64,000 nt of DNA. Origin: an uncultured Bacilli bacterium (GTDB taxonomy: Bacteria; Bacillota_I; Bacilli_A; RF39; UBA660). Below, one piece after another: positions 1,426 to 63,809 of the stretch (position 1 is its first letter; each line of letters begins with the position of its first letter). Made by a program: the position numbers and the translations under genes. The notes under the pieces were generated by a model that worked only from the letters and a program-made list of their open reading frames with translations, had not been told where the DNA came from and did not search any database. Where the stretch lies: the NCBI GenBank assembly GCA_934098705.1, contig CAKOPC010000002.1:26990-90989 (forward strand), read 5' to 3'.

Positions 1426-1427
1426 AA

Positions 1428-2135: not shown

Positions 2136-2198
2136 ATAATATCCTCCCTAAAAATATATAATAAGACAAAAAGAATAATGAAATAAATCACTATTCTC

Positions 2199-2840: not shown

Positions 2841-2844
2841 ACCT

Positions 2845-5663: not shown

Positions 5664-5666
5664 AAC

Positions 5667-7757
5667 TTATCTATAATTCTTTTCTTTATCCATACGCATT
5701 TCAATAGTAGCTTCATTTATAGCATCATCTACTGTTTTTATTTCATCATCAATCATACTATAACCAATAGCAGCTCCAAATCCATATGGTAACTTATCAA
5801 ATTCCTTAGAAAGTTTTGACAAATAACTATTTATTTGTGTTTTACTATAACCAATTAAATATATTAAAAACTCATTTCCATCTGTTCTTATAATATCGCT
5901 TTTCTCAAGTTGATTATTGATTAATATAGCAGCAGCCTTTTTAATTAACTCATTACCTTCCTCATGTCCATAATTATCATTAACATATTTTAAATTATTT
6001 AAATCAATCATAACAATAGTTCTTGGATATATCTTAGTATTATCCCAGTTATTTATATTATCATTTAAATAATTTCTATTCTTTAAATTAGTTAGCATAT
6101 CATTATATCTTAATACATTTTCTTTCTTTGTAATCTTAACATTTTTAGAATTTTTAAGTAATAACATAACAACAAATATTATAATAATAGGACATAATAT
6201 AATACCAACAACTATCATATAAATACCTTTAAAGCTACCTTCTGTTTCATTAACATTAATTAATTCATTTAAAGCCTCTATTTTATATTCATCATAATTT
6301 GTATTATATAAAACAAAATCTATTAAATTATATAAAACATCTTCACTTTGTTTAACAACAAATTTATTTGCTCCAACAAAACTATCACTAAATAGATATT
6401 TATATTGTTTTAATGTATCATCTTTTAAAAGTAAATAATCATTTTTATCAAGTAAAAGTATACCATCACTACTTATTTGTTTATTATAACTTGTTATTGT
6501 TTTAATACTACTATTTATATTTTTACTAACATAATCATATAAATATCCATCTTTCATTAAATATAATTTATTATTAACAAGACCATATTTATTATTTATA
6601 TCATAATATTTATTTGCTAAACAAGCAAATTCTTCCTTAATAGCAGAATTAGTATTTAAATAATTACTATTATCATAAGCAAAATCAACATAAGCCATAT
6701 CAAGTTTACCACTATCTAATGCTTTCTTTAATTCATCTACTGATTTATACTCTATATATTCAAACTCTATATCAGTCATATTAATAAGAGTTTCAATGTA
6801 TTTACCAGCAATACCATATAATTTATTATTTTTCAAAGTATTATAAGCATTATCTTTAGTAAAACCATATTTATAAACCCTTTTATTTAATGTTGACTTT
6901 GATATTTCAGTAAAGTTTTTATTAGCACTATAAAACTTTAATAAATTCTTGTCAAAACTTAAAGTCATTTTATTTTCTTTATAATTATTTAAAAGTTTCT
7001 CTATAATAGTATTTAATTTTTCATTATTACCAAGTCTTAATACATATTTATCTTCTAAATCTCCAATTACATAATTAGCATATAAAGAATTATTTGTTAT
7101 AACATCTAAATAACTATATCTTGGTAAAATAATATATGATAAAGTAGCATTATTTAAATCAGCAATTAAATCTTCTGCATTATTATAAGTTTTTAAAGAA
7201 ATACCTTTATTTTGTAAATAAGTATTTATAAAAGTTTCATCATCTTTTAAAATGCCAACATTTTTTTTTGATAATTCACTTACATCTTTTATATCTTCAA
7301 GTGTTTTACCTAAAACAACATATTTATCAGCAAGCATTAAAGTATCATTATCTAAAATAGCATCAGTTGGCTTTAATAAAGCAATAGATAATCCATCATA
7401 ATTTACTGAAGATGTATAGTTATATGGCATTTTATTAAAGGAAAGTCCAACACTTTCTGTTACATAATCTAAAAAGTCAAATATAACGCCATCCCCTTCT
7501 TTAGCATATATGTAAGTATCATTAGGAACATTTATATCAACTAAAACAGATTTATTACTTTCAACCCATTGCTTTTCTAAAAGAGTTAAATTATTATCTT
7601 CATCTTCAACAGTTAAAAAATAATAAATAATTCCTGCAACAGATAAAATAACAATTATTGCAATTAAAAGTTTAAAAATAAGTCCCTTTACATTCTTTTT
7701 CTTTTTTCTTAATTTCATAAAAGTATTACTCCTTATCTTTGTTATCATCTTTTTCAT
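5667..7757 (-). CDS. Membrane sensor protein with large extracytoplasmic domain and C-terminal degenerate GGDEF domain
   Basis: N-terminal TM helix, ~480-aa extracytoplasmic region (solute-binding-protein-like), a second TM, then a GGDEF-type domain (YGHEEGNELIKKAAAIL...IIRTDGNEFLIYL). The signature reads DGNEF instead of GG(D/E)EF. Confidence 0.6.
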   Translation of the reverse strand: MKKMITKIRSNTFMKLRKKKKNVKGLIFKLLIAIIVILSVAGIIYYFLTVEDEDNNLTLLEKQWVESNKSVLVDINVPNDTYIYAKEGDGVIFDFLDYVTESVGLSFNKMPYNYTSSVNYDGLSIALLKPTDAILDNDTLMLADKYVVLGKTLEDIKDVSELSKKNVGILKDDETFINTYLQNKGISLKTYNNAEDLIADLNNATLSYIILPRYSYLDVITNNSLYANYVIGDLEDKYVLRLGNNEKLNTIIEKLLNNYKENKMTLSFDKNLLKFYSANKNFTEISKSTLNKRVYKYGFTKDNAYNTLKNNKLYGIAGKYIETLINMTDIEFEYIEYKSVDELKKALDSGKLDMAYVDFAYDNSNYLNTNSAIKEEFACLANKYYDINNKYGLVNNKLYLMKDGYLYDYVSKNINSSIKTITSYNKQISSDGILLLDKNDYLLLKDDTLKQYKYLFSDSFVGANKFVVKQSEDVLYNLIDFVLYNTNYDEYKIEALNELINVNETEGSFKGIYMIVVGIILCPIIIIFVVMLLLKNSKNVKITKKENVLRYNDMLTNLKNRNYLNDNINNWDNTKIYPRTIVMIDLNNLKYVNDNYGHEEGNELIKKAAAILINNQLEKSDIIRTDGNEFLIYLIGYSKTQINSYLSKLSKEFDKLPYGFGAAIGYSMIDDEIKTVDDAINEATIEMRMDKEKNYR

Positions 7758-8223
7758 ATGTTGCAGATGTATACTTAAAATTACTACTGTTTTTATTTAA
7801 GTATCCAATAGTAGGATAACCATCTACATTTTCACCATTAATATTTAAAAATACTTGAATATCATAGAACTTCTTTTGCTCTTCTTTTATATCACTAACA
7901 ATAATAGATGTTAGCTTTTTACTATCATCAAGTTTTGTATCATCCTTTACTGTTATATGAACATTTAATATTCTTCCCTTTATATTATATGATGCCGTAT
8001 CTACTATTTCTTCCTCTTTTAATTTAGATATTATAGTATTCATCTCATCATCAGTTATTTTTACCTTTGAAATACCATCTAATCTATTACCATATAAAGG
8101 TTTTCCACTACCTGCAAACATTAAATTATATAAAACACCACAAACAATAGCGATAAAAGTAAATGCAACTATTCCAATAGAAGTATATTTGTTTTCTTTA
8201 ATTATTTTTTTTATATTTTCCAT
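7726..8223 (-). CDS. Hypothetical membrane-anchored protein
   Basis: 165 aa, one N-terminal TM helix, then a soluble domain; no motif recognised. Confidence 0.4.
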   Translation of the reverse strand: MENIKKIIKENKYTSIGIVAFTFIAIVCGVLYNLMFAGSGKPLYGNRLDGISKVKITDDEMNTIISKLKEEEIVDTASYNIKGRILNVHITVKDDTKLDDSKKLTSIIVSDIKEEQKKFYDIQVFLNINGENVDGYPTIGYLNKNSSNFKYTSATYEKDDNKDKE

Positions 8224-8278
8224 AAATTCAAAACTCCTTATTCTATAAATAGTATTATAACTTATATTATAGATTTTA

Positions 8279-9700
8279 TCAATTTACATCTTTTGACAGT
8301 AAATCTTTTAACAATTTATTTACAATAACAGGATTAGCACTACCTTTAGTTTCTTTCATTACCATACCCATAAGATACTTAAAGGCATTATCTTTACCAT
8401 TTTTATAATCATTTACAGAAGCTTTATTTTCATCTAATACCTTAGTAACAACTTTCATAAGTTCATCACTATTACTAACTAAAGATATATTATTTTTCTT
8501 TAAGATTTCATCTAAACTTAAATCACTCTCCATTAAGTCTTGTAAAATATCTTTAAAGTTTTTACTTGATAACTTTCCACTATCTAAATAATTAACAATA
8601 TCTATAAATTTACTATCTATTTTAGTATCATATACTGAAAGTTTATTCTTATTTAAATATGATGTTATATCTCCAAGTAATATATTACTAGCTATTTTTA
8701 AATTAATATTCTTATCTATAAATTTATTTAGATAATCACTTAAATCCTTATTAGCAATTAATTTTTCTATATTAACATTTGATATACCATTATTTGTATA
8801 TATTTCTCTTCTTTCACTAGGAAGCATTACTATATCTTTTTTAACGTTTTCTATATATGAATCCTCTAATACAACATAAGGAATATCAGGTTCTGGAATA
8901 TATCTATAATCATTACCAACTTCCTTTTTTCTCATAGAAACAGTTGTATTTAACTTAGAATCAAATCTTCTAGTTTCTGGTATTAAAGTGCCTCCTCCTT
9001 CTAAAATATCAATTTGTCTTTTTATTTCCTCATTAATAGCAGTTCCAACATCTTTTATAGAACCAATATTTTTAACTTCACATTTAGTACCTAAAGTATC
9101 AGTCTTAGAAACAGAAACATTTACATCAGCTCTCATAGAACCTTCCTCAATTTTACAATCACTAACACCAAGATAAAGCATTAATTCTCTTAAATTTTCA
9201 AGATAAGACATAGCATCACTACTTGATGTTATACAAGGTTTAGTAACAATTTCAATAAGAGGAACACCACTTCTATTATAATTTAAAAGTGTATACCCAT
9301 TTACATGTAAACTTTTACAAGTATCTTCTTCAATATGCATCTCTTCAATTAAAACGTACTTATCATCACCTATTTTAAGTTTTCCATTAACTCCAATAGG
9401 AGTTTCATTTTGTGTTATTTGATAACCCTTTGGTAAATCAGGATAATAATAACACTTTCTATCAAAATGCATACGTTTATTTATAGTACAATTAAGAGCA
9501 AGACAAGCCTTTAAAGCTTTATATATAACCTCTTTATTTAAACTAGGTAAAACACCAGGCATACCAAGGTCAATTATATTTACATGTCTATTTACAGAAT
9601 CACTATAACCATTTACAGAAGGAGAAAATATTTTAGTTTTTGACATTACCTCAATATGTACTTCAATTCCTATCGTAGGAGTATAATCTTTATTCATCAT
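8279..9700 (-). CDS. gatB: Asp-tRNA(Asn)/Glu-tRNA(Gln) amidotransferase subunit B
   Basis: 473 aa. N-terminus YTPTIGIEVHIEV is typical GatB; sits in a gatC-gatA-gatB operon with 1-bp overlap with gatA. Confidence 0.9.
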   Translation of the reverse strand: MMNKDYTPTIGIEVHIEVMSKTKIFSPSVNGYSDSVNRHVNIIDLGMPGVLPSLNKEVIYKALKACLALNCTINKRMHFDRKCYYYPDLPKGYQITQNETPIGVNGKLKIGDDKYVLIEEMHIEEDTCKSLHVNGYTLLNYNRSGVPLIEIVTKPCITSSSDAMSYLENLRELMLYLGVSDCKIEEGSMRADVNVSVSKTDTLGTKCEVKNIGSIKDVGTAINEEIKRQIDILEGGGTLIPETRRFDSKLNTTVSMRKKEVGNDYRYIPEPDIPYVVLEDSYIENVKKDIVMLPSERREIYTNNGISNVNIEKLIANKDLSDYLNKFIDKNINLKIASNILLGDITSYLNKNKLSVYDTKIDSKFIDIVNYLDSGKLSSKNFKDILQDLMESDLSLDEILKKNNISLVSNSDELMKVVTKVLDENKASVNDYKNGKDNAFKYLMGMVMKETKGSANPVIVNKLLKDLLSKDVN

Positions 9701-23477: not shown

Positions 23478-23512
23478 AAAATAAAAAAACTAATAACAAA
23501 ACTACTTATTAG
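23478..23512 (-). terminator. Candidate terminator at the 3' end of the methyltransferase gene
   Basis: 7-bp inverted repeat CTAATAA / TTATTAG overlapping the stop codon, followed on the minus strand by a U-rich tract (TTTTTTTATTTTA). AT-only stem, so weak. Confidence 0.35.
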
Positions 23513-24224
23513 TCTTTCTATTTTCTAAATCAATACTTGTTGGAATATCTATTTTATTATCTGGTATTTCAAGTCCCCAGTTATCCCATCCATTATAATT
23601 TTCTCTTGCAAATAGTTCAATTTTTTCCTGAAATGGAAACATTTTACTTATACCTTCTATCACCTTAACAGGTTTTTTACTATGTTCTTCTCTTGGAAAA
23701 GTAATAAGTTGTCTTACATTTCTAGCTCCTCTAGGAGTTGGTATCACACCTTTTTTAAAGACAAGACAAAATTCAGTTTGTGATAAAGTATATCTACCTG
23801 GATTATGAATCATTTTATCCCACACAAAAGCAACTGTTTTATATTCAAATCCCCAGTAATTTCCAAGTTTTATAGCATTTTCAAACTGTGGTCCTGTAGT
23901 CCACATAAAAAGTAAACAACTTTTACTATCTGCAATAGATAAAACGTCAAGTTGCATTAAATCTTTAAGTTTTAAAGTGGGATACTTAAAAGATGCTGAA
24001 CTTAAAAAAATATTTTTAGTAAAACCAACATTTAAATCTTTTATAGTAGTTTTATCATATTGATATTTACCACCATAATCCCAAGGAGGATCCATATAAA
24101 TAATTTGATATTTTTTATTAGGTAATTTTGGATAAAGTTCATCTAAAGGATTAACCTTCTTTCTATTCTTACCTTGCACGTTATATATTGAATATGCTGT
24201 AATATTTTTACTACTATTATCCAT
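23502..24224 (-). CDS. MT-A70-family (beta-class) N6-adenine DNA methyltransferase; R-M system M subunit
   Basis: 240 aa. Catalytic motif IV DPPW (YMDPPWDYGG). Size and MT-A70-type arrangement fit a DNA MTase; divergent from a C-protein/REase pair. Confidence 0.75.
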   Translation of the reverse strand: MDNSSKNITAYSIYNVQGKNRKKVNPLDELYPKLPNKKYQIIYMDPPWDYGGKYQYDKTTIKDLNVGFTKNIFLSSASFKYPTLKLKDLMQLDVLSIADSKSCLLFMWTTGPQFENAIKLGNYWGFEYKTVAFVWDKMIHNPGRYTLSQTEFCLVFKKGVIPTPRGARNVRQLITFPREEHSKKPVKVIEGISKMFPFQEKIELFARENYNGWDNWGLEIPDNKIDIPTSIDLENRKTNK

Positions 24225-24571: not shown

Positions 24572-25180
24572 ATGGGTAAATTACAGTTAAGTAAAAGAGC
24601 AAACTGGGAAAGTACAAGTGGTAAAAAGGCAGAAAAAGCAGAACAAAACTTATATAAAGTTTTTGAAAAAGAATTTAAAAATACAAAATATATTTTATAT
24701 AAAAAGCCTACATTTTTAAAAGATTTATATGCAAATGTAAAACTTGATGATGAAGTTTTAAAAGCAATTTATAATCCAAATATTGATTTAAAGAAAACAA
24801 AATGGGGCATTTGTCCTGATTTTGCTATTCAAAATAAAGAAACAGGTAAAATTCTTTTTGGAGAGATAAAAAGACAAGATGGCTGGGTTGAAGGAAAAAA
24901 TCCAAGTGCAGGAAGAGGTAATGCTCACGAAAGATTCTGCAAATTCTTCACACCAGGATTATTAAAAGCATGTCGCAAAATTGGAAAAATAAAAAGTAAA
25001 GAAATTCTCCCATTTTGGGTAGTCTTTGAAGGAGATGTTACAAGAGATCCAAAAAGAGTAAGAGAAATAACTTTTTTATTTGATAAATATAACAAAAACT
25101 TTTTTATGTGGCGTCCTAATGAAACTGGTGATGTGTTAATTAATCACTTTAACAAATACTTAAAAAAATATTTAGACTAA
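24572..25180 (+). CDS. Putative type II restriction endonuclease (PD-(D/E)xK fold)
   Basis: 202 aa. Candidate PD...(D/E)xK motif: GICPDFAI ... FGEIKRQ. Follows the C gene by 15 bp with an RBS (GGAGG). Confidence 0.55.
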   Translation: MGKLQLSKRANWESTSGKKAEKAEQNLYKVFEKEFKNTKYILYKKPTFLKDLYANVKLDDEVLKAIYNPNIDLKKTKWGICPDFAIQNKETGKILFGEIKRQDGWVEGKNPSAGRGNAHERFCKFFTPGLLKACRKIGKIKSKEILPFWVVFEGDVTRDPKRVREITFLFDKYNKNFFMWRPNETGDVLINHFNKYLKKYLD

Positions 25181-52666: not shown

Positions 52667-53440
52667 CTAATATATCTGTTTTTTTATTCTAACTAAAGCA
52701 TTCTTTTCAAGCCTTGATATTTGAGCTTGTGATATACCAAGTTCATTTGAAATTTCCATCTGTGTTTTACCAACAAAATATCTATCTTCCAAAATCTGTC
52801 TTTCCCTACTTGTTAATTTGCTAATTGCCTTAGTAAGTGTCATATGTTCTAAATGATCGTAAGAACTTTTAGGGTCGCTTACTTGATCACATAGATATAT
52901 TGTATCTCCGCCATCATTATAAATTGGTTCAAAAAGACTAACTGGAGGTATTAAAGCTTCAAGTGCATTAATAACTTCCCTTTCCTTTATTTCCAAAATT
53001 TTAGCTATTTCTTCATTTGTTGGTTCCTTCCCATTTTCTAAAGTTAATTTTTCCTTTAATTTAAGTACTTTATACGCTGTATCTTTTACACTTCTTGATA
53101 CTCTAATACTTGTATTATCTCTAATATATCTTTTCACTTCTCCAAGTATCATAGGAACAGCATAAGTTGACAACTTTACATTTAAACTTGGATCAAAATT
53201 ATCTATGGCCTTTACAAGTCCAATACACCCAATTTGAAATAAATCATCCAAATTTTCATTGTAAGTTTTAAAATTTTTCAAAATAGACAAAACAAGTTTT
53301 AAATTTCCATTTATAAGTTCTTCCCTTGCTAATTTATCTCCTTGTTTCATTCTTTTAAACAAAACTTCCATCTCTTCCTGTTTTAAAACTTTTAAACTAC
53401 TTGTATTTATACCAGATATTAAAACTTTATATTTAGACAT
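52667..53440 (-). CDS. sigG: Sporulation sigma factor SigG (forespore-specific sigma-70 family)
   Basis: 257 aa; alignable along its length with Bacillus SigG as recalled: KVLISGINTSSLKVLKQEEM, GDKLAREELINGNLKLVLSIL, DDLFQIGCIGLVKAIDNFD, STYAVPMILGEVKRYIRDN, IRVSRS, PVSLFEPIYNDGGD, GKTQMEISNELGISQAQISRLEK. Confidence 0.85.
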   Translation of the reverse strand: MSKYKVLISGINTSSLKVLKQEEMEVLFKRMKQGDKLAREELINGNLKLVLSILKNFKTYNENLDDLFQIGCIGLVKAIDNFDPSLNVKLSTYAVPMILGEVKRYIRDNTSIRVSRSVKDTAYKVLKLKEKLTLENGKEPTNEEIAKILEIKEREVINALEALIPPVSLFEPIYNDGGDTIYLCDQVSDPKSSYDHLEHMTLTKAISKLTSRERQILEDRYFVGKTQMEISNELGISQAQISRLEKNALVRIKKQIY

Positions 53441-53570
53441 ATTTATATTCCTTTCAACCTTAATAATGAAAAAAGAATATAAATTTTATGCAAAATTAAA
53501 ACATTTTACCATTTTTTATTCAAACTATTAAAATGGCAAAAAATAACAAATCTATAATTTATTAAAAAAA

Positions 53571-54760
53571 AGGTTTAACAAAAACTTTACAAGTATTTAT
53601 TAACCTTCTTTATCTCTTCATTAAGATTACTTTTTAATATATAATCTTTAAATCCATCTTCAATGTATTTTGAAACTAAAAACTTTTTATCATCATTAAT
53701 AGTTATTAATACTGGTGTTTTAAATTTTTTTATAGTTTGTAATTTCTTTAAAGTATCATATCCACTTTGAAGCCCCATCTCATCATCCACTATTATCATG
53801 TCATACTCTTCCCCATTTTTTATCTTCTCTATCGCACCTTTTCCATATAATACCATTGTTACATCTATACCAAGTTTTATTAATTGTTCCTCCATCTGTT
53901 TGGCTTCGTTTAGTTTTTCGTTTACTATTAATATTTTTCTTTTTCCTCTTGTATCTATTTGATTAAAATTTATTTTATCTTTATTTTCTTTTATTTTTTG
54001 GTCTATTATTATTAGGTACTCACTACCTTTATTTATTTCACTTCTTACTATTAATGTTCCTCCAAGTACTTTTATTATCTTATTTGCCATTTCTATTCCA
54101 ACATCTACTTTATCAAGTTTTTTAAAGTCTTCTTGTTCCATATAACTTGCACTTAATATCCTATTTACTTTCTCTATTGTCATACCACATCCTGAATCAC
54201 TTATTGATATTATTAATCTACATACATCATATTTTACTATGGAATTAACTTTTATTTCTATAAAACCTTTTTTTGTCTGCTTTAATGAATTATTTAATAT
54301 ACTAATTAACACTTGCTTTAATTTTACTTTATCACCATAAAGTTTGGCATCTATTAAATCTGTATAATTTGTTCTTAATTCAACATCACCTTGTATCTCT
54401 TCCTTTACTCTTTTTTCTATCTCTTTAAATAATAGTTTTACATCATAAAATCCAAGAGCCAATTTTATATTTGATATATCCATATTTGATATATCAAACA
54501 CATTATTTGCCAGAAGCATTAATTCTTTAGAACTTATATTTACTTGTTTTGCCATTTCTTTTAAGTTATCTTTATTATTTTCACTTATCATAAGATTACT
54601 TATATCTTGAATATTTTTTATTGGTTCCTTAGTTTTTTGTTGTAACTCAAATAATAAATTTAATTTTTCTTCATTTGTCTTTTCAATTAGTTTTCTATTT
54701 TCATTTAACGTTTCAATAACCTTTACATCTGGATTTTCTATTGTATGATACATAATAAAA
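53571..54760. repeat. Large direct repeat, copy 1 (~1.19 kb; 3' two-thirds of the hybrid kinase gene plus 16 bp of 3' flank)
   Basis: Near-identical to 57561..58750 (offset 3990 bp). Identity runs from AGGTTTAACAAAAACTTTACAAG just past the stop to ...CTTTACATCTGGATTTTCTATTGT at the TM/cytoplasmic boundary, with scattered substitutions (roughly 95% by eye). Confidence 0.8.
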
Positions 54761-55386
54761 GCAATAAATATAAGTACTGGATTTATCAAATAATTTAATG
54801 TAGGGTCAATAATCATCACAATAAGTATAGATATACCAAGTATTACAAGTACATAAACTGGAATATATTTTTTACTTTTTATATTTTTATAATTTAAAAG
54901 CACACACACAATTTGTGTAATAAGTCCAAGTCCAAATATAAAATATGTATACATAACAGAAATACCTTTAGATGTCGCAGCACTATTAGGATTTATAGTA
55001 ACTTCAATAGGAAATATTAAAACAACTAAAATACTAAAGATTCCCAAAATATAAAATATATTTTCTATCTGCCTCAATTTATCTTGTTTTTTTAAAGAAA
55101 CATATAAAATATAAAATGTAAATATAAATACCCATAAAAGAAGTCCAATTAAATAAAGTTTATTAAATAATGATACAACAAAAACACTACTTGTAACTTT
55201 TGAACTAACATATATACCAAGTAAAATACCACTGCAAGACATAAATATATTGGCAAGTAAAAACAGTGAATATAGATTATCTTCCATTTTCTTTAATCTC
55301 GGTTTGTTAAAAAACAGTATTGCAACTGCAATTATTACTAATAGTGCATAAAAATTAATACTTAAAAAACCTAAAACATTTTCCAT
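53587..55386 (-). CDS. Polytopic sensor histidine-kinase-like / receiver hybrid protein, copy B (no His at the H-box position)
   Basis: 599 aa. ~7 TM helices, DHp-like helix, HATPase_c (N-box LISILNNSLKQTKKG, G1 ISDSGCG, G2 GIEMANKIIKVLGGTL), C-terminal REC (DMIIVDDEMG ... VLITIND ... DYILKS). The canonical HE.RTP position reads FELQQKTKEP. Confidence 0.7.
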   Translation of the reverse strand: MENVLGFLSINFYALLVIIAVAILFFNKPRLKKMEDNLYSLFLLANIFMSCSGILLGIYVSSKVTSSVFVVSLFNKLYLIGLLLWVFIFTFYILYVSLKKQDKLRQIENIFYILGIFSILVVLIFPIEVTINPNSAATSKGISVMYTYFIFGLGLITQIVCVLLNYKNIKSKKYIPVYVLVILGISILIVMIIDPTLNYLINPVLIFIAFIMYHTIENPDVKVIETLNENRKLIEKTNEEKLNLLFELQQKTKEPIKNIQDISNLMISENNKDNLKEMAKQVNISSKELMLLANNVFDISNMDISNIKLALGFYDVKLLFKEIEKRVKEEIQGDVELRTNYTDLIDAKLYGDKVKLKQVLISILNNSLKQTKKGFIEIKVNSIVKYDVCRLIISISDSGCGMTIEKVNRILSASYMEQEDFKKLDKVDVGIEMANKIIKVLGGTLIVRSEINKGSEYLIIIDQKIKENKDKINFNQIDTRGKRKILIVNEKLNEAKQMEEQLIKLGIDVTMVLYGKGAIEKIKNGEEYDMIIVDDEMGLQSGYDTLKKLQTIKKFKTPVLITINDDKKFLVSKYIEDGFKDYILKSNLNEEIKKVNKYL

Positions 55387-55422
55387 ATAACACTAACCTT
55401 CTTTTTATCCATTTTTATTCTT

Positions 55423-57402
55423 TTATTTTCTTTTTCTAACTAAATCTTTTGTTTCATTTTGATAAATATCTATGGTAGATGTAGAAAGATTTGTTTCCGC
55501 TACAACAACATTAACAATATCATCATCTGTTAAATCATCTTTTCTTAATGAAACAAAATCCATCTTTCCATTTTTAGTTTGTGGAATAGAAGTTCTAAAT
55601 TTAAATTTTGATGGAATTTGTCTTGATGACATATCTTTGTTTGCTAAAATATCATTATAAACAATATCATTAACAACACTTATATAATCTTCATTTTTAT
55701 ACTCATCATTTAAAACAATATGACAAGCTGGCATTAAACCTCTTCTTTTTTCATCAAAATATTCAACAATACATACATATTTAACTTTTTCATTTTTAGC
55801 TATTTCTTTTTCAACTTCATATGGTTTTATTTTATAACCATCAAATCTTGCAAAAGATCTATCTTTTCTTGATTTATGATAGAATTTTCCTTCTTCATCC
55901 ATTTCCACTAAATCTCTTGTTCTAATATATGTCTTTCCATCAAGTTCATATTGTGGAATAATAACATTTTCATCTAAAACACCTTTTGTTACATTATCTC
56001 CAGATACAGCAAGTTCTCCAAAAGTTCTACCATTATGATTTATAGGAACTCTAACAAGTCTATCTTCAATATTTGGGTCAACTAATGTAAAGTCAGTGTG
56101 AGGAAGTGGTATTCCAATACATTCATAATCATTATAAGCACCTTGTGCATAAGAACCGCAACCAAAGAACTCACTCATACCATAACCCTTAGTTACAGTA
56201 CAAGAACTACCATGTTTTCTAAAGAATTTATTTAATTCCTCTTCATCCTTTGCAGTCATAGTATCTCCACCATAAATAGCAACCTTTACACAAGATAAAT
56301 CTTCACCCTCTAAATAATCACAAGTTGTAAGTGAATGTAATAGTGATGGTGAAATCATAATTACATTTGGATGATATTTTTTTATTAAATATCCAAATTC
56401 ACTTATCTCAAACTCTGGAACATCAATGTTATTAGCAAGGCTTGTCAAATTCATTAAATAATTATTATAAGCTCCAAATGGTGCAAAAAATGGTAAAACA
56501 TGAAGTGCTGTATCACCCTCATCAAAATTTACAAGTCCTTGTTTTAACTGTTCTAATGTTGATATAGCATTTTTATGTGTTCCAGGTATTGGTTTTGGTC
56601 TTGTACCACTTGTACCTGATGTATGTCCTATATATTGTAAACCATCTAAATTTCTATAAACAGTAAAACGTGAATTTTGAACGTTTCTTTTTAAATCATC
56701 ATAAAACATTATATTTAGTTTTGAAGAAGCCATAGCATCATTTAAAGTACCCTCTTGTTGTTTCATCATTTGCACTTTTTCAAGTAATGCTTGATACCAT
56801 TTTAACTTATTAATATTATCTAAAACATGTCTTTTATTTTTTAAATCATTATAATTAATGACATCTTTCATATAACTAATTTTTCCACCAAGATTCATAG
56901 AATCAGTAGCTCTTAAAAGAACAACATCACGTATTCCATATGATAAAAGTTCTTCTTCTACTGGTTTTATCATCGCCATATAACACATATCAAGAGCAAC
57001 TATATATTTTGGATGTTCAAATTTTACTATTTCAAGTAACTTATTTCCATTAGCTTTAGCATCCATACTATCTGGTCTTGGATCGATAAAATCAGATACT
57101 GCTCCAATTTGAGCAGAACCAAGCCATAATTCTCCTACTTCTGGAATATTTGGAACTAAATATAAAATTCTATCTCCAACTCCAACACCCATTTCAGTAA
57201 GTACTCTAGATGCTTTATCAGCATTATAAAATAATTCTCCATAAGAAGTTTCCTTGCCATAATAAGTTTCTGCTGTTAAATCTTTCTTATTTCTTGCTAT
57301 ATTTTCTAAATATTTTTTAATGTTTAAATCAACATAATTTTGTCTTTCTATTGGATAATTTTTATAAAAATTCATCCAAGGCATATTTTCATTTTTATTC
57401 AT
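55423..57402 (-). CDS. Adenylate-forming enzyme (AMP-binding / ANL superfamily), copy B
   Basis: 659 aa. AMP-binding core motif YIGHTSGTSGTRPKPIPGTHKN (T[SG]GT.G.PK), a second Gly-rich motif, C-terminal domain; substrate unknown. Confidence 0.75.
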   Translation of the reverse strand: MNKNENMPWMNFYKNYPIERQNYVDLNIKKYLENIARNKKDLTAETYYGKETSYGELFYNADKASRVLTEMGVGVGDRILYLVPNIPEVGELWLGSAQIGAVSDFIDPRPDSMDAKANGNKLLEIVKFEHPKYIVALDMCYMAMIKPVEEELLSYGIRDVVLLRATDSMNLGGKISYMKDVINYNDLKNKRHVLDNINKLKWYQALLEKVQMMKQQEGTLNDAMASSKLNIMFYDDLKRNVQNSRFTVYRNLDGLQYIGHTSGTSGTRPKPIPGTHKNAISTLEQLKQGLVNFDEGDTALHVLPFFAPFGAYNNYLMNLTSLANNIDVPEFEISEFGYLIKKYHPNVIMISPSLLHSLTTCDYLEGEDLSCVKVAIYGGDTMTAKDEEELNKFFRKHGSSCTVTKGYGMSEFFGCGSYAQGAYNDYECIGIPLPHTDFTLVDPNIEDRLVRVPINHNGRTFGELAVSGDNVTKGVLDENVIIPQYELDGKTYIRTRDLVEMDEEGKFYHKSRKDRSFARFDGYKIKPYEVEKEIAKNEKVKYVCIVEYFDEKRRGLMPACHIVLNDEYKNEDYISVVNDIVYNDILANKDMSSRQIPSKFKFRTSIPQTKNGKMDFVSLRKDDLTDDDIVNVVVAETNLSTSTIDIYQNETKDLVRKRK

Positions 57403-57474
57403 AAAACAACCACCTCTAATAAAAAATTTTGTCTGTTAGTATATCACAATTTTATAATAAATTATAAAACATGG

Positions 57475-57512
57475 CATATTCGGTTAAAATAGCACCATAT
57501 TCTGCAAATATA
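57475..57512. promoter_or_regulatory. Doubled operator-like motif upstream of adenylate-forming enzyme gene B
   Basis: GCATATTCGGTTAAAATA (57474-57491) and CCATATTCTGCAAATATA (57495-57512), 21 bp centre-to-centre, 73-110 bp upstream of the ATG at 57402. Matches the motif pair at 61459-61498. Confidence 0.45.
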
Positions 57513-57560
57513 CCCCTCTTTTTTCTATAAATAATATATCATATAAAATAAAAAAAAGAA

Positions 57561-58750
57561 AGGTTTAACAAAAACTTTACAAGTATTTATTAACCTTCTT
57601 TATCTCTTCATTAAGATTACTTTTTAATATATAATCTTTAAATCCATCTTCAATGTATTTTGAAACTAAAAACTTTTTATCATCATTAATAGTTATTAAT
57701 ACTGGTGTTTTAAATTTTTTTATAGTTTGTAATTTCTTTAAAGTATCATATCCACTTTGAAGCCCCATCTCATCATCCACTATTATCATGTCATACTCTT
57801 CCCCATTTTTTATCTTCTCTATCGCACCTTTTCCATATAATACCATTGTTACATCTATACCAAGTTTTATTAATTGTTCCTCCATCTGTTTGGCTTCGTT
57901 TAGTTTTTCGTTTACTATTAATATTTTTCTTTTTCCTCTTGTATCTATTTGATTAAAATTTATTTTATCTTTATTTTCTTTTATTTTTTGGTCTATTATT
58001 ATTAGGTACTCACTACCTTTATTTATTTCACTTCTTACTATTAATGTTCCTCCAAGTACTTTTATTATCTTATTTGCCATTTCTATTCCAACATCTACTT
58101 TATCAAGTTTTTTAAAGTCTTCTTGTTCCATATAACTTGCACTTAATATTCTATTTACTTCCTCTACTCCAATACCACATCCTGAATCACTTATTGATAT
58201 TATTAATCTACATACATCATATTTTACTATAGAGTTTACCTTTATTTCTATAAAACCCTTTTTAGTTTGTTTTAATGAATTATTTAATATACTAATTAAT
58301 ACTTGTTTTAATTTTACTTTATCGCCATAAAGCTTGGCATCTATTAAATCTGTATAATTAGTCCTTAACTCAACATCACCTTTTATCTCTTCCTGTACTC
58401 TTTTTTCTATTTCTTTAAATAATAGTTTTACATCATAAAATCCAAGAGCTAACTTTATATTTGATATATCCATATTTGATATATCAAATACATTATTTGA
58501 TAAAAGCATTAATTCTTTAGAACTTGTATTTACCTGTTTTGCCATTTCTTTTAATTTCTCTTTATTATTTTCATTTAACATAAGATTACTTATATCTTGA
58601 ATATTTTTTATTGGTTCTTTAGTTTTCTGTTGTAACTCAAATAATATATTTAGCTTTTCTTCATTTGTTTTATCAATTAGTTTTCTATTTTCATTTAATA
58701 TTTCAATAACCTTTACATCTGGATTTTCTATTGTAAAATACATAATAAAT
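57561..58750. repeat. Large direct repeat, copy 2
   Basis: See copy 1. Similarity ends abruptly where the N-terminal sensor-domain coding regions begin. Confidence 0.8.
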
Positions 58751-59364
58751 AAAACAAAAGATTCAGTAACCGTAATCATTGTAAAACCTGGATATATTTT
58801 TTGAATTACTGAAGCAACACCAAGTCCTACAATTAAAACAATAAGTGGTAAATATTTTCTTATTTTTAATGATTTATAATTTTTTGCCATAAAATAAATA
58901 CTTACAACTATAGAAATTAATGAAGCAACATAAGTTGCAACAATAGATGGCCCTTTAGAATACATATATTTATCAATAACTATATTAAGAGGAAGCACAA
59001 TAATTAATACTGAAAAGATAGAGGTGAATATCAAAATATAATTTGAAATTCTTTTTTCATGTATTTCATAGTTTTCATTTCCTAATGAAACACATATTGC
59101 ATATTTTAAAAACAAAGTACAAAAGAAAAGTAAATACAATAAGTAAGACTTATTAACTAATAAATTAAAGAAACTATCTGGATTTGAGTACAAACCATTA
59201 TAAATACATAAAAGTTCAATTAAAAGTCCAAATATATTTAAACTAAGAAGATTATTAAATATATTAAGTTCGTAAGAATCAATGTGTTTCTTTTTCTTAT
59301 ACATAAATGTCAAAACAATAATGTATAAAAGACTCATAATTAAAAAGTGAGAACTATTATTCAT
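57577..59364 (-). CDS. Polytopic sensor histidine-kinase-like / receiver hybrid protein, copy A (no His in the DHp region)
   Basis: 595 aa. Divergent N-terminal 6-7 TM sensor region; from FTIENPDVKV onward nearly identical to copy B, with the last ~230 aa identical. The only His of copy B's linker (HTIENP) is Phe here. Confidence 0.7.
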   Translation of the reverse strand: MNNSSHFLIMSLLYIIVLTFMYKKKKHIDSYELNIFNNLLSLNIFGLLIELLCIYNGLYSNPDSFFNLLVNKSYLLYLLFFCTLFLKYAICVSLGNENYEIHEKRISNYILIFTSIFSVLIIVLPLNIVIDKYMYSKGPSIVATYVASLISIVVSIYFMAKNYKSLKIRKYLPLIVLIVGLGVASVIQKIYPGFTMITVTESFVLFIMYFTIENPDVKVIEILNENRKLIDKTNEEKLNILFELQQKTKEPIKNIQDISNLMLNENNKEKLKEMAKQVNTSSKELMLLSNNVFDISNMDISNIKLALGFYDVKLLFKEIEKRVQEEIKGDVELRTNYTDLIDAKLYGDKVKLKQVLISILNNSLKQTKKGFIEIKVNSIVKYDVCRLIISISDSGCGIGVEEVNRILSASYMEQEDFKKLDKVDVGIEMANKIIKVLGGTLIVRSEINKGSEYLIIIDQKIKENKDKINFNQIDTRGKRKILIVNEKLNEAKQMEEQLIKLGIDVTMVLYGKGAIEKIKNGEEYDMIIVDDEMGLQSGYDTLKKLQTIKKFKTPVLITINDDKKFLVSKYIEDGFKDYILKSNLNEEIKKVNKYL

Positions 59365-59425
59365 GAAATTACACTTCCTTTATTTTACAAGTAAATTATA
59401 TCACAAAGTCAAAAAAAAGAAAATC

Positions 59426-61390
59426 TTATTTCGTTAAGATTCTCTTCATTTCTTTTTTATCTTTATTATTTTTTAAATCTTCGTAAGAATTATAAACATC
59501 TCTTGCTAAAACACACTTATTAGAAATACCTTCCTCAATTAAAGCTAAAAAGCTTCTTTTTAGAGTTGGAGATATAACAAATGATTCTTTATTATCTCTT
59601 ACTCTAAAATATAATTTATCTAAAACATCTGCTCCAAAAGCTTTAACACATCTATTTAATGCTGAATATAAAACTTTATCTTTATCAAATGAAACATTAA
59701 TTTGTGGTTCAATATGAGCTACATATTTTACATTACCATTATCATTTACAGTTACAACTTCACAAGACATAATCTTTTTAGTATCTTTTAAAATTTCATT
59801 AGCTATTTTATAATTTGGAATATTTCCATCTCTATTACTTATTCTACCCTTTACATAAATATGTGAAAACTTATCAATATAACCATATACATTTAAGTTA
59901 GCCCAAGTTTTTCCATAAGCATCTTTAATAAAGAACGCCTTATCTCCTTCTTTATTATTTACATAACCTTCCATAGTACATGGTGAATTAGCAACAAGAT
60001 TACCTGGTTCCATAAAATCACAATATGTACCATCTTTCCTTAAGGCTTTTATATTAACCATTCCATATGTTGACATACCAACAGGTTCTTTTATACCAAA
60101 ATTTTTAAATAATTTAGTCTGCAAAGCTCTATACATTGTAATAAAAATACCACCATGCTCAGAGTCCCCCCCTGCTATACTCATACATACAACAGATGTT
60201 GGAAGTTTTATAATATCACGTCCTGCATCAAGACTTCTAAGCCATTTATTTAGTACTTTTTCTTCATTTGCATCAAGACCTTCACCAATACACATAGGGC
60301 ATATTAAAAACGGAAGTTTAATATTTTTATATCTAGGATCCCACATTTGTTTTTTCATATTATAAATAAATACTGATCTTGAAGTTAAAAATACATTAGG
60401 TTTATTAATTAAAAGTGATTCGAATATAAAATCTTTATCGTTTATAGGTTCAAGAGCAACTATACCACTTTGCATAGCAACATCACTTACTCCAGACATA
60501 AAATCAGTATCAGACATTGTTCTAACTAAAGATAACATAACCATACCCTTCATAGATGGTATTTTAGATATTTCACTATCATGATATCTTCCCATAGTAA
60601 TATAACTTCTTACTCTATGAACTAATCCTTTTGGTTTATTTGAAATAGTAGAACCACTTGTATAAGTTGTTGTAAAGTCGCTATCAAGTGTTGTTACATC
60701 ATAAATTTCTCCCTTTACATTATCACCCTTAGTCAAAAATTCATCAAATGACATAATATTATCAAATGAAGATAAAGTATCATTATAAGATTTTTCATCC
60801 AATTTATAAAATTTATCAGTTATTTGAGCATATGGATTGCCATTTTTTAATGAATGATTAAGTGGAATAGGAATTATTGTTTTAGGAACCTCTAACATCT
60901 TTAACGTTTCACTAAATGAAACAAAATTCTTATCACTTACAAATATTAAATTAGATGTTGCATTATCAACAATATTTTTTAAATATTCATGATCCATATC
61001 TGCTGCTAAAAGATTAACTCTAGCACCAATTATACTTGCAGCACCCATTATAAATGGAAATTCAGGTGTATTTTCAAGACAACATACAATTTCCTCTCCC
61101 TTTTTTACACCATTTGCCTTCAATGCTTTAGCATACTTATATGAATAAGCAAAAAAATCTTTATAAGAAAAATTAGTACCTCTATATTTTATATAAGGTG
61201 CCTCCAAATTATTTTTATTTCTTTCCCATACTTCTTTAATCCAAGACCAATTATGATTTTCATCAATATCTTTTAATATTTTTTGATTTTTCTTATTACA
61301 ATCACTACTATCATAATAATTATTATTTGGCATGCTCTTAACTTTTTCTATTTCTAAAACAAAATTTTTAAACAATTCTTCATTTTTCAT
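59426..61390 (-). CDS. Adenylate-forming enzyme (AMP-binding / ANL superfamily), copy A (divergent paralog of 55423..57402)
   Basis: 654 aa. AMP-binding core motif YTSGSTISNKPKGLVHRV; similar length and domain order to copy B but strongly diverged in sequence. Confidence 0.7.
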   Translation of the reverse strand: MKNEELFKNFVLEIEKVKSMPNNNYYDSSDCNKKNQKILKDIDENHNWSWIKEVWERNKNNLEAPYIKYRGTNFSYKDFFAYSYKYAKALKANGVKKGEEIVCCLENTPEFPFIMGAASIIGARVNLLAADMDHEYLKNIVDNATSNLIFVSDKNFVSFSETLKMLEVPKTIIPIPLNHSLKNGNPYAQITDKFYKLDEKSYNDTLSSFDNIMSFDEFLTKGDNVKGEIYDVTTLDSDFTTTYTSGSTISNKPKGLVHRVRSYITMGRYHDSEISKIPSMKGMVMLSLVRTMSDTDFMSGVSDVAMQSGIVALEPINDKDFIFESLLINKPNVFLTSRSVFIYNMKKQMWDPRYKNIKLPFLICPMCIGEGLDANEEKVLNKWLRSLDAGRDIIKLPTSVVCMSIAGGDSEHGGIFITMYRALQTKLFKNFGIKEPVGMSTYGMVNIKALRKDGTYCDFMEPGNLVANSPCTMEGYVNNKEGDKAFFIKDAYGKTWANLNVYGYIDKFSHIYVKGRISNRDGNIPNYKIANEILKDTKKIMSCEVVTVNDNGNVKYVAHIEPQINVSFDKDKVLYSALNRCVKAFGADVLDKLYFRVRDNKESFVISPTLKRSFLALIEEGISNKCVLARDVYNSYEDLKNNKDKKEMKRILTK

Positions 61391-61458
61391 ACATTATTCC
61401 CCCTTAACAAAAGTTAACTGCTATTATAACACTTTAATAAAAAAATTTCAAATTAAAG

Positions 61459-61498
61459 CCATATTCTGTCAAAATAAGGTCGCATTCTGTCAAAAATA
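61459..61498. promoter_or_regulatory. Doubled operator-like motif in the divergent intergenic region (adenylate-forming enzyme gene A <- -> radical SAM gene)
   Basis: CCATATTCTGTCAAAATA (61459-61476) and CGCATTCTGTCAAAAATA (61481-61498), 21-bp period, 70-108 bp upstream of the ATG at 61390. Consensus with the 57.5-kb copy: ATATTCTGtcAAAATA. Confidence 0.45.
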
Positions 61499-61584
61499 AT
61501 CTTTAATTTACAAATATATAATAACATTATCTAAATAAAAATTCAAATAAATATGTTATAATAACTAAAAAAGGTGATGTTTTT

Positions 61585-62478
61585 ATGGAAAAAGAATTTT
61601 TAAACTGCAATCTATGTCCTAGAAATTGTAATATAAATAGATATGAAACATTAGGTTTTTGCATGGCTCCCCCTAAAATAAAAATAGCAAAAGCAGACTT
61701 ATTCTTTTATGAAGAACCTTGTATTTCTGGTAGTAATGGTAGTGGTGCTATATTTTTTTCACACTGCAATTTAAAATGTATATTTTGTCAAAATTATGAA
61801 ATATCAACAAATAATATAGGGAAAGAAATAACTATAGATAAATTTAGTGATATTATGATTAATCTTCAAAATAAAGGGGCACTAAATATAAATTTAGTAA
61901 CACCAACTATGTATATACCATTAATTAAAAAAGGAATTATAAAAGCCAAAGAAAAAGGTCTTAATATACCTATTATATATAATACAAGTGGTTATGAAAA
62001 TGTTGAAGCTTTAAAAACACTTGATGGACTTATTGATGTATATCTTCCTGATTTTAAGTATTATAATGATAATCTTGCTTATAAATATTCAAATACAAAA
62101 AACTATAAAGAAACTGTTAAAAGTGCAATAGAGGAAATGTACAAACAAACAGGTAAAATAACATTTGATAAAAATGGCATAATTAAAAAAGGCGTTATTG
62201 TAAGACACTTAATGCTTCCTAATATGGAAGATGATTCTAAAAAAATTATCGAATACTTGTATAAAAAATACAAAGATAATATCTTTTTAAGTATAATGAA
62301 CCAGTATACTGTAATAAAACCTTTAAAGTATGAAGAATTAAATAAAACTATAGAGGAAAAAGTATATGATGATGTAATAAACTATGCTTATGACCTTGGC
62401 ATACGTAATGCTTATATTCAGGAAGGTGGAACACAAAAAAAGAGCTTTATTCCTGATTTTAAAAATCAAGAATTCTAA
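61585..62478 (+). CDS. Radical SAM protein with N-terminal Cys-rich extension (PflX-like / putative glycyl-radical-enzyme-activase-like family)
   Basis: 297 aa. N-terminal C.LCPR.C...R.....G.C pattern (CNLCPRNCNINRYETLGFC) followed by radical SAM CxxxCxxC (HCNLKCIFCQN); RBS AAAGG upstream. Confidence 0.65.
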   Translation: MEKEFLNCNLCPRNCNINRYETLGFCMAPPKIKIAKADLFFYEEPCISGSNGSGAIFFSHCNLKCIFCQNYEISTNNIGKEITIDKFSDIMINLQNKGALNINLVTPTMYIPLIKKGIIKAKEKGLNIPIIYNTSGYENVEALKTLDGLIDVYLPDFKYYNDNLAYKYSNTKNYKETVKSAIEEMYKQTGKITFDKNGIIKKGVIVRHLMLPNMEDDSKKIIEYLYKKYKDNIFLSIMNQYTVIKPLKYEELNKTIEEKVYDDVINYAYDLGIRNAYIQEGGTQKKSFIPDFKNQEF

Positions 62479-62529: not shown

Positions 62530-63143
62530 TTATGGCATATAGTATGTTTTTGTTCCACTTTTAAGATCAAATATTATAGAACCATACTTACTTGTTTCAA
62601 AATATGTTAAATTAAGCTTATTTAAACTATCAATAGTTTCCTTTGAAGGATGATTATATTTATTATTAAAAGATGCAGATATGATGGAATATTTAGGATT
62701 TGTTACCCTTAAAAAATCATAAGAACTACTCGTATTTGAACCATGATGTGCTAACTTTAAAATATATAAAGAAGATAAATCATAATTATTAATTAAATCC
62801 TCTTCAACACTTTTAGGTATATCCCCAGTAAATAGCATCTTTTTATTATACATATTTAAATATAAAACAATACTTGATGAGTTTTCATCATTATTATTTT
62901 TATTCAAACTATATAATTTTATACCATTAAAATCAATTATATTACCTTTATATAATTTTTTAACTGGTATTTTTTTAAACTTGATGCCTTAATAAGTTTA
63001 TTTTCCAAATAATTTAGCTTATTACTGTTAATATATATGTTATCTATTTTAAAATTATTAACCAAATAAATACTATCTCCCATATGATCATAATCTCCAT
63101 GTAGTTGTTGTAAAAAAGTAAGTCGAATAAAAAGAACTATCAA
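62530..63143 (-). pseudogene. Remnant of a ComEC/Rec2-type metallo-beta-lactamase domain, split into two ORFs and lacking the N-terminal channel domain
   Basis: ORF 63143..62937 carries LHGDYDHMGD (HxHxDH). ORF 62907..62530, in a different frame, carries MLFTGDI ... KLAHHGSNTSSS ... NKYNHPSKETI, typical of the ComEC C-terminal MBL domain. An A7/T7 homopolymer at 62961-62967 lies in ORF 1 (63143..62937), ~25 nt before its stop, i.e. upstream of the frame break on the minus strand. Confidence 0.5.
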
Positions 63144-63161: not shown

Positions 63162-63809
63162 CTATAATTTTTTATTTTTTTGTGATTGTTTGACTGTTTC
63201 AAATATGTGATTTGCATCTTGCTTTAACAAATCTGGATTCTTAACGTATTCTAACAATTTTTCTTTAGAATAATTTTCTAGCATGTATTTTCCTAAAGTA
63301 TATGAGTAACTATACCCGTTTTCTGTTCCATTAAAATCACTTTTTAATTTTTCAAAATCACAATATTCTAAACTAACTGGTGAATAATCTTGATTACTTA
63401 GATTAGTTGCCAATGCTTCCCAATACCAACTAACACCCTTAGAATTTTCATTCCACTCTTGCTGACATGAATGCACAAACTCATGTAGTATGCATTTTAT
63501 AAATTCTTCCATATCCATATCTTCATGTTCTTTAGATTTTCTTGCTTCAGACATTTCTAACAAGTTAATATTACCATCATATGTATCAGCACACATCCAT
63601 TCTTTAAATTCTTTTACAAATGGCAACAAATGTTTCTTGTATTTTTCTCTATCAGTAAAAATCACTACTTTCTTTTTTTGAGAAAGTTTTTCAAGTTCAA
63701 AAAATTCTAAAATTTCAATGGTATTGTTTTCTAATGTTGAAATTATATTTGACATATAATCAATCTCTTTGTCATATTCAATAGTAAAATTACTAAGTTC
63801 GATTTTCAT
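63162..63809 (-). CDS. Hypothetical protein with HExxH zinc-metallopeptidase-like motif
   Basis: 215 aa; ILHEFVHSCQQEW ... WEALA suggests a gluzincin-type HExxH...E arrangement; no further family assignment possible. Confidence 0.4.
   Translation of the reverse strand: MKIELSNFTIEYDKEIDYMSNIISTLENNTIEILEFFELEKLSQKKKVVIFTDREKYKKHLLPFVKEFKEWMCADTYDGNINLLEMSEARKSKEHEDMDMEEFIKCILHEFVHSCQQEWNENSKGVSWYWEALATNLSNQDYSPVSLEYCDFEKLKSDFNGTENGYSYSYTLGKYMLENYSKEKLLEYVKNPDLLKQDANHIFETVKQSQKNKKL

Follow-up and report, generated by a model that had tools for sequence, protein, structure and literature searches.

Our analysis of a 64,000-nucleotide stretch of DNA from an uncultured member of the Bacilli (GTDB lineage Bacillota_I; Bacilli_A; RF39; UBA660) revealed a doubled direct repeat with a period of 21 bp upstream of each of two neighbouring operons. 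The stretch covers positions 26,990 to 90,989 of contig CAKOPC010000002.1 (assembly GCA_934098705.1) and is referred to as the window; all coordinates are those of the window, whose G+C content of 25% marks the host DNA as very AT-rich. Both operons (A and B) and the sporulation sigma factor gene sigG (52667-53440) lie on the minus strand, in the order operon B, a gap of 174 bp, operon A and then sigG. The first gene of operon B (59426..61390) encodes an AMP-binding (adenylate-forming) enzyme of 654 amino acids (aa) with a hit to Pfam PF00501 (E = 5.5e-20), and the second (57577..59364) a membrane-bound hybrid histidine-kinase-like protein of 595 aa with HATPase_c and receiver domains, in which the histidine of the H-box is replaced by glutamine. 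Operon A is built in the same way, with an AMP-binding enzyme of 659 aa (55423..57402) that is remotely similar to the enzyme of operon B, and a paralogous kinase-like/receiver protein of 599 aa with a divergent sensor half (53587..55386). On the plus strand, pointing away from operon B, lies a divergent radical SAM gene (61585-62478).

The two AMP-binding enzymes show only marginal similarity to each other, and their nearest relatives of solved structure are 4-coumarate/fatty-acyl-CoA ligases, DltA and luciferases. Identical proteins were found only on human-gut metagenome contigs (ENA, Logan), Hadza samples included. Since the second gene of each operon is hybrid histidine-kinase-like, the operons are signalling modules and not only enzyme operons.

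The doubled repeat

Two copies of a TATTTTGACAGAATATGG-like unit, oriented as the downstream genes, are present in each of the two intergenic regions. A direct-repeat search gave a start-to-start spacing of exactly 21 bp at both operons and a single 21-nt direct-repeat family per region (57475-57495 / 57496-57516 for operon A and 61448-61468 / 61469-61489 for operon B). The 17-mer CATATTCTGTCAAAATA matched with three or fewer mismatches at 57475, 57496 and 61460, while the fourth copy at 61481 was found only with a 1-nt register shift. An earlier note on this DNA, made from the letters alone, had described a doubled element at these places; both searches recover it in both regions, the repeat coordinates given there are right to within 1 nt, and the period of 21 bp is indeed exact. 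Such a period equals two helical turns and would thus place both copies on one face of the DNA.

Aligned across promoters, the units of operon B read ATTTTTGACAGAATGCGACC (distal, 61478..61497, with the core CAGAATGCGA at 61489-61480) and TATTTTGACAGAATATGGCT (proximal, 61457..61476, with the core CAGAATATGG at 61468-61459), and those of operon A TATATTTGCAGAATATGGTG (distal, 57493..57512) and TATTTTAACCGAATATGCCA (proximal, 57472..57491, with the core CCGAATATGC from 57483), all on the minus strand. The layout consists of a 9-10 nt core CAGAATATGG after a T-rich TTTTGA stretch, a spacer of 11-12 nt and a second core. AATATGG is the most conserved block of the unit and its information content peaks at C9 and G17/G18, 8 nt apart, while the GACA part varies (GACA, TGCA, AACC, TACA, TACT). 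The C of the proximal core lies 78 nt from the ATG in operon B and 81 nt in operon A, with the distal copies 21 nt further upstream, so that the copies of both operons together lie 78-102 nt from the start codons; this agrees with the 70-110 bp, in the same orientation, of the earlier note. In gene orientation the upstream sequences are TTTTTGACAGAATGCGACCTTATTTTGACAGAATATGGCT (operon B) and TATATTTGCAGAATATGGTGCTATTTTAACCGAATATGCCA (operon A).

Significance and conservation of the element

A weight matrix of 20 nt was built from seven sites in other species only (loci L008, L013 and L096), the window sites being excluded so that the scan was not circular. On both window strands it ranked the positions 61457 and 57493 as the top two single sites, the proximal unit of operon B being the best in the window (score 23.1) and the distal unit of operon A scoring 19.5. 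The top two 21-bp pairs on both strands (128 kb) were the two promoters with scores of 32.5 and 31.2, whereas the best pair in 60 first-order Markov simulations of the window reached 13.7 on average and 20.6 at most. Pair offsets other than 21 scored at most 24 in the same scan, and a further 21-bp pair of the element was not found in the 64-kb window. The concern of the earlier note that the motif might occur at background frequency in this AT-rich genome was not borne out in the window, where both pairs exceed the simulated maximum and no other site occurs.

Related loci were fetched by similarity to the kinase-like protein. In about 1 Mb of such loci every pair scoring above 25 was located directly upstream of a homologous operon, and in about 1.1 Mb of window and related loci taken together all seven high-scoring pairs (seven out of seven) stand upstream of AMP-ligase/kinase-like operons, with three enzyme types among them. 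Specifically, L008 (two operons, L008a and L008b), L013 and L096 have the doubled element in front of their AMP-binding genes and in the same orientation, with kinase-like proteins that are 50%, 49% and 46% identical, respectively. The site in L023, the seventh promoter, nearly copies one of those in L008 (L008b). Over the stretch that begins with the distal repeat and ends with the -10 box, six promoters from four lineages (window A, window B, L008 twice, L013 and L096) can be aligned without gaps; both repeats and the -10 box are kept in this alignment while the flanking bases have diverged. Conservation upstream of orthologous operons, whose absence would have refuted the element according to the earlier note, is found in four lineages. 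The motif goes with the AMP-ligase/kinase-like operon rather than with the radical SAM gene, whose possible co-regulation the earlier note had raised: L013 and L096 carry the motif but lack this gene, and in L097 the gene is present but the motif is not. The element is lineage-restricted, with plain sigma-A promoters lacking the motif in L015, L043, L077 and L090 (orthologues of both enzyme types), L097 and L220.

Searches beyond these loci gave the following picture. The exact 16-mer had at least 120 matches in metagenome contigs; among the matches listed none was related to these operons, and they comprised chance matches in coding DNA (L169, L211) and a 21-bp tandem satellite, GGGCTCTTTTGACAGAATATA, on environmental contigs of eukaryote-like character. 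This satellite forms long 21-bp arrays in L145 (600-1050), L189, L204, L147, L104, L171 and L193, on contigs of 34-47% G+C with ACAT-type microsatellites alongside and without related genes. Given this G+C content and these microsatellites, the arrays are probably eukaryotic, and the satellite shares the 16-mer and the 21-bp period with the element by coincidence. A degenerate pattern of the doubled element had no match in the metagenome contig collection, and L013, which fits the pattern, evidently lies outside this collection. A literature search for the core sequence returned unrelated primer matches only.

Other 21-bp direct repeats were observed in promoters of distant homologous operons (L010, about 7070-7110; L064, about 3240-3290; L024, upstream of 2113), an example from the distant operons being TTTTAGACGTAAAA / TTTTAGACATTAAAA. 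Such repeats may be bound by related factors that differ in specificity. Once the present lineage was removed, the offset of 21 was not enriched in distant homologous promoters (3 of 61 promoters).

Promoters around the repeats

Directly downstream of the repeats lies a promoter that we refer to as P2. In operon B it reads TTGAAA-17-TGtTATAAT (61423..61451, minus strand), with the -10 starting 40 nt after the C of the proximal core, and it is the best sigma-70-type match (11/12, with TG) in the 8.4 kb from 53300 to 61700. P2 of operon A has an extended -10, TGaTATACT (57438..57446, minus strand), likewise 40 nt after the C of the proximal core, and no good -35. The distance from this C to the TATAAT/TATACT/TATTAT hexamer amounts to 40 nt in six promoters, counted directly from the sequence for L096, and to 41 nt in L023. 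An extended -10 TG occurs at P2 in window A, window B and L096. The -35 is variable overall and poor in four of the six promoters, which fits a dependence on an activator.

A second promoter-like and conserved sequence, here termed P_up, lies on the other side of the repeats and is absent from the earlier note. It reads TTGAAT-17-TGtTATTAT in operon B (61518..61546, minus strand), has the extended -10 TGaTATATT in operon A (57533..57541, minus strand) and was found in all motif-bearing promoters (window, L008, L013, L023 and L096) as TTTACA/TTGAAT/TTGATT-17/18-TGnTATATT. It is located 51-55 nt upstream of the proximal core, and at yet another distance in L096, so that its spacing is not fixed. 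The repeats hence sit between two promoters, and a transcript from P_up would carry them at about +12 to +52.

A putative operator for a trans-encoded activator

The doubled element, real and conserved, probably acts as a cis-regulatory operator that the two operons have in common. From the sequences we infer that a protein binds at the repeats, that it activates transcription and to which family it would belong. With moderate confidence we propose that the element may serve as the operator for a trans-encoded, LytTR-type activator of P2. Such a regulator would bind the repeats as a dimer, or as two cooperating monomers, at centres near -49 and -70, and would recruit sigma-A RNA polymerase to P2 directly downstream. 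P2, with its conserved and often extended -10 but mostly poor -35, would rely on the bound activator. Operons A and B would be switched on together because both carry the same site. The earlier note had already suggested that one transcription factor, dimeric or binding in tandem, co-regulates both operons, and this is the likeliest reading, while the sigma-dependent element offered there as an alternative is not supported.

Sites of LytTR regulators have been described as two repeats of 9-11 nt, 11-13 nt apart, in direct or inverted orientation, without a consensus that would hold for the whole family (PMC4847170). Where LytTR systems regulate themselves, 4-11 bp, in most cases 10 bp, lie between the repeats and the -35 downstream of them, an extended -10 is frequent, and the distance from repeat to -10 hexamer is 31-33 bp when summed from Tables 2-3 of that study (PMC6193735). 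In our six promoters a 10-nt core CAGAATATGG occurs twice per promoter, the copies start exactly 21 nt apart in every case with a spacer of 11-12 nt, and the proximal repeat is separated by 7-9 bp from the -35 and by 30-32 bp from the -10 hexamer. It is this geometry, closest to that of published LytTR-activated promoters, that leads us to prefer a LytTR-type activator encoded elsewhere in the genome.

Among individual systems, the HdrR/BrsR LytTR regulatory systems (LRS) of Streptococcus mutans (PMC6193735) share the period of about 21 bp, the strict geometry and the weak -35, and YpdB at yhjX, with the repeat GGCATTTCAT, represents a LytTR-activated promoter of comparable two-repeat layout (PMC4847170). 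Low sequence conservation between systems and a regulated operon that encodes a membrane signalling protein are further points of likeness. The AgrA P2/P3, ComE and VirR boxes are other LytTR-activated sites for comparison. There are also differences. The core CAGAATATGG is unlike the ACCNCTTAN of LytTR systems, LRS and agr/com operons encode their own regulator whereas here a LytTR gene is found neither in the operon nor within reach, and the genes encode an adenylating enzyme and a kinase-like protein without the histidine, whereas LytTR systems control bacteriocin, competence or peptide-signal genes.

Several observations weigh against a LytTR-type activator. P_up is as well conserved as P2 and could let the same site act as a roadblock for a repressor. 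P2 of operon B, with its near-consensus -35 and extended -10, might not need an activator at all. Homologous operons of more distant relationship lack the motif and have TTGACA-17-TATAAT promoters of the plain type. The repeat ACAGAATAT does not resemble the ACCNCTTAN repeats, although no consensus shared by the family is reported. A gene for a LytTR protein (PF04397) or another DNA-binding protein was not found among about 40 open reading frames (ORFs) of the window with Pfam and NCBIfam, sigG excepted, and transcription factor genes were likewise absent from the called neighbourhoods of homologous loci. With no regulator gene in the window or beside related operons, the family is something that we infer. 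Among 149 flanking ORFs that were pooled from about 55 distant genomes, Pfam showed no recurrent transcription factor, only Hpt and receiver domains with three hits each. The statement of the earlier note that a transcription factor gene is not adjacent therefore stands with regard to DNA-binding domains, but it was incomplete, since the second genes of the operons are themselves hybrid histidine-kinase-like/receiver genes.

It is possible, though unlikely in our view, that the repeats instead form a repressor operator for P_up, with a protein at about +12 to +52 blocking transcription from an extended -10 promoter that is constitutive; the TATAAT further downstream would then be incidental or a secondary promoter. 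An extended -10 is present upstream of the repeats in all promoters and in four genomic contexts, and P_up outscores P2 in L008a, L008b, L013 and the near-copy L023, but in neither window promoter. Against this, it is the distance between repeats and P2 -10 that is fixed (40-41 nt) and not that between P_up and repeats, and repression at P_up leaves both this fixed spacing and the conserved P2 -10 box unexplained. Tandem direct repeats just upstream of a -35 are moreover typical of activation.

Also unlikely, to a similar extent, is a site of the same activator type that belongs to another family, AraC/XylS or other tandem-binding activators. Each monomer of an AraC/XylS-type protein would read a bipartite unit with its two helix-turn-helix motifs, and two monomers would occupy the repeats 21 bp apart; for XylS, two 15-bp direct repeats are described in which a box A (TGCA) and a box B (GGTA) are 6 bp apart (PMC5481539). 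For this family one would expect two direct repeats of about 15-17 bp with a period of 21 bp, each with a box A and a box B 6-7 bp apart. The period is present here, and nine of the twelve units read (T/G/A)(G/A)CA-N6-GG (for example TGCAGAATATGG and TGCAAAATATGG), so that the second box is represented by GG only, although the two distal L008 units run on as GGATA and GGTTA. The information peaks at C9 and G17/G18 would fit contacts in two successive major grooves. XylS at Pm and AraC at araI1-I2 hence resemble the element in their direct repeats of 21-bp period, and the unit TGCA-N6-GG resembles the XylS boxes; the monomers of these regulators are believed to fill the proximal site before the distal one. 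With XylS and AraC the proximal site adjoins the -35 or overlaps it, whereas 7 nt separate the end of the proximal core from the -35 here. An HTH_18/AraC gene was not seen in the window or the neighbouring loci, and the host is a low-GC Firmicute-like gut bacterium.

We regard as very improbable a sporulation-related or alternative-sigma element, that is a Spo0A 0A box, a SigF/SigG promoter or a sigma-54 promoter of the -24/-12 type. The antisense strand of several units reads TGTCAAA, with one mismatch to TGTCGAA, but the CG core of the 0A box occurs in no unit, the TGTC-like part is the least conserved and AATATGG, the most conserved block, lies outside any 0A box; the comparison with Spo0A boxes that the earlier note had called for thus turned out negative. 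The units contain GAATA, which resembles the -35 of SigF/G, and sigG is the next gene, but the distance from GAATA to the next CAGAATA is 14 nt instead of the 17-18 nt needed (G-AT-A / CAT--TA), and the adjacency to sigG is not conserved (L013, L096). As for sigma-54, TGG-N9-TTGCA arises in both L008 promoters where the distal unit ends and the proximal one begins, but GG-N10-GC is restricted to L008a and L008b, with window A, window B, L013 and L096 lacking the GC or having an 11-nt spacing. Neither kind of sigma factor hence supports the sigma-dependent element of the earlier note.

Other known boxes were compared with the element and rejected. CodY (AATTTTCWGAAAATT) matched at 7 of 15 positions without gaps, the cre and ComK boxes were discarded against the aligned sites, and sigma-H on sequence and spacing. 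A sub-repeat of 10-11 bp of the OmpR/PhoB type was not visible inside the unit in the alignment.

Hardly credible is a role of the repeats in RNA, as a 5'-leader element of the P_up transcript, for instance a switch structure or tandem sites to which an RNA-binding protein attaches. Both repeats would be transcribed if P_up fires, and the invariant GG after A or T loosely recalls GGA-type protein-binding motifs. An RNA element is disfavoured by RNAalifold, which found no conserved structure (0 pairs) over the six leaders; moreover, base pairing between direct repeats is impossible, and the exact period of two helical turns and the fixed distance to the -10 are properties of DNA. Just as remote is an element without function, left over from the duplication that gave rise to the two modules or arisen by chance in AT-rich DNA. 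The 91-100% DNA identity between the 3' halves of the kinase-like genes implies that recombination between the modules occurs, but this identity ends about 18 nt past the stop codon. Apart from the repeats and the -10 boxes the promoters have nothing in common, and the relationship between the two enzymes is slight. The element is also kept in three other species, whose kinase-like proteins show 46-50% identity, and the null simulations never reached the observed pair scores.

The kinase-like protein family and its partner enzyme

The two kinase-like proteins of the window are 74% identical. Their genes are 100% identical in DNA over the last 540 nt and about 18 nt past the stop codon (53587-54130 versus 57577-58120) and 91-96% identical over the next approximately 630 nt (to about 54760 / 58750), while the sensor parts, at about 40%, do not exceed background. 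As the identity is confined to the cytoplasmic half, gene conversion appears to have affected this half only.

An alignment of 28, and then of 95, relatives showed that the H-box in this family reads S/T-Q-E/D-x-K-x-P. Glutamine occupies the position of the phospho-accepting histidine in 61 of the 95 relatives, both window copies included, and histidine in 17; neither window protein contains the histidine of the SHELRTPL type that characterizes canonical hybrid histidine kinases. The receiver aspartate is conserved in 86 of 95 relatives, and a TIENPD motif after the last transmembrane helix is invariant, the sensor being of a type with six transmembrane helices (6-TM).

The best match of the family profile among solved structures is RetS of Pseudomonas aeruginosa (6DK8, 7N0E; E ~1e-28). 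RetS, which acts without canonical autophosphorylation, resembles the second gene of the operons (a likeness of the protein, not of the DNA element) in its non-canonical hybrid kinase/receiver architecture. It differs in that it keeps the H-box histidine in its sequence and has a sensor domain other than the 6-TM/TIENPD type, and here, unlike in RetS, the kinase-like gene is paired with an AMP-binding enzyme.

In most of 80 loci, taken from metagenome-assembled genomes of uncultured gut Bacilli, 'Tenericutes' and Mycoplasmatota, the enzyme gene precedes the kinase-like gene, which in gut Bacilli almost always follows it directly. At least 567 relatives are present among GTDB species representatives. 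Enzyme type and sensor-half type were co-inherited in 13 out of 13 clear orthologues, which suggests that each enzyme is functionally coupled to its sensor.

These features allow a more far-reaching but improbable reading, in which the AMP-ligase/kinase-like pair without the histidine and the doubled repeat together would make up an undescribed, self-contained autoinducing signalling cassette of uncultured gut Bacilli. The 13 of 13 co-inheritance, the homogenised cytoplasmic but distinct sensor halves and the presence of the motif only at these cassettes are consistent with it. If true, the adenylating enzyme would make or activate a small-molecule or lipid signal, and the partner protein would read it with its cognate 6-TM sensor half. 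The doubled repeat would serve as the operator for autoinduction, through which a trans-encoded regulator would close a positive feedback over several paralogous cassettes.

Neighbouring genes and variable regions

Variation in the number and kind of modules was observed at the locus itself. The strain variant L005 has one module only, the other being lost. On L220 (ENA k141_470157, 1-9080) two different AMP-ligase/kinase-like modules occupy the same chromosomal place without the doubled motif, flanked on one side by the 3' end of a sigma-factor gene and a gene for 345 aa and on the other by the flank that precedes sigG in the window. L220 represents a strain or sister variant with different modules, and the locus therefore appears to swap cassettes.

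A variable island lies beside the radical SAM gene. It contains a 125-aa ORF (62530-62907, minus strand), whose match to ComEC is confined to the metallo-beta-lactamase part at the C-terminus, and an ORF of 215 aa (63162-63809, minus strand) without any family match. Next to these ORFs L001 has genes for a full-length ComEC and a DUF1016/YhcG nuclease, and the strains L003, L005 and L006 carry other small genes at this place. Elsewhere in the window a gene for an MT-A70-family methyltransferase (23502-24224, minus strand; Pfam E = 1e-17) adjoins one for a MunI-like type II restriction endonuclease (24572-25180, plus strand; Pfam E = 1.4e-64), and the two probably form a restriction-modification pair.

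Implications for gene regulation in uncultured gut Bacilli

The motif itself is new, while its layout is already known and is that of an ordinary activator-type operator. The analysis draws attention to a widespread uncharacterised gene pair, that of an adenylating enzyme and a hybrid kinase-like protein without the phospho-accepting histidine. It further provides a concrete handle on gene regulation in uncultured, very AT-rich Bacilli of the human gut, namely a regulatory cassette of about 150 bp with a defined operator. Through the element both paralogous operons would belong to a single regulon, which across species would comprise up to three enzyme types. Its sequence can be used to search complete genomes of the lineage for the regulator and for the remaining regulon, and the promoter of the regulator may itself carry the same repeats, as in known LytTR systems.

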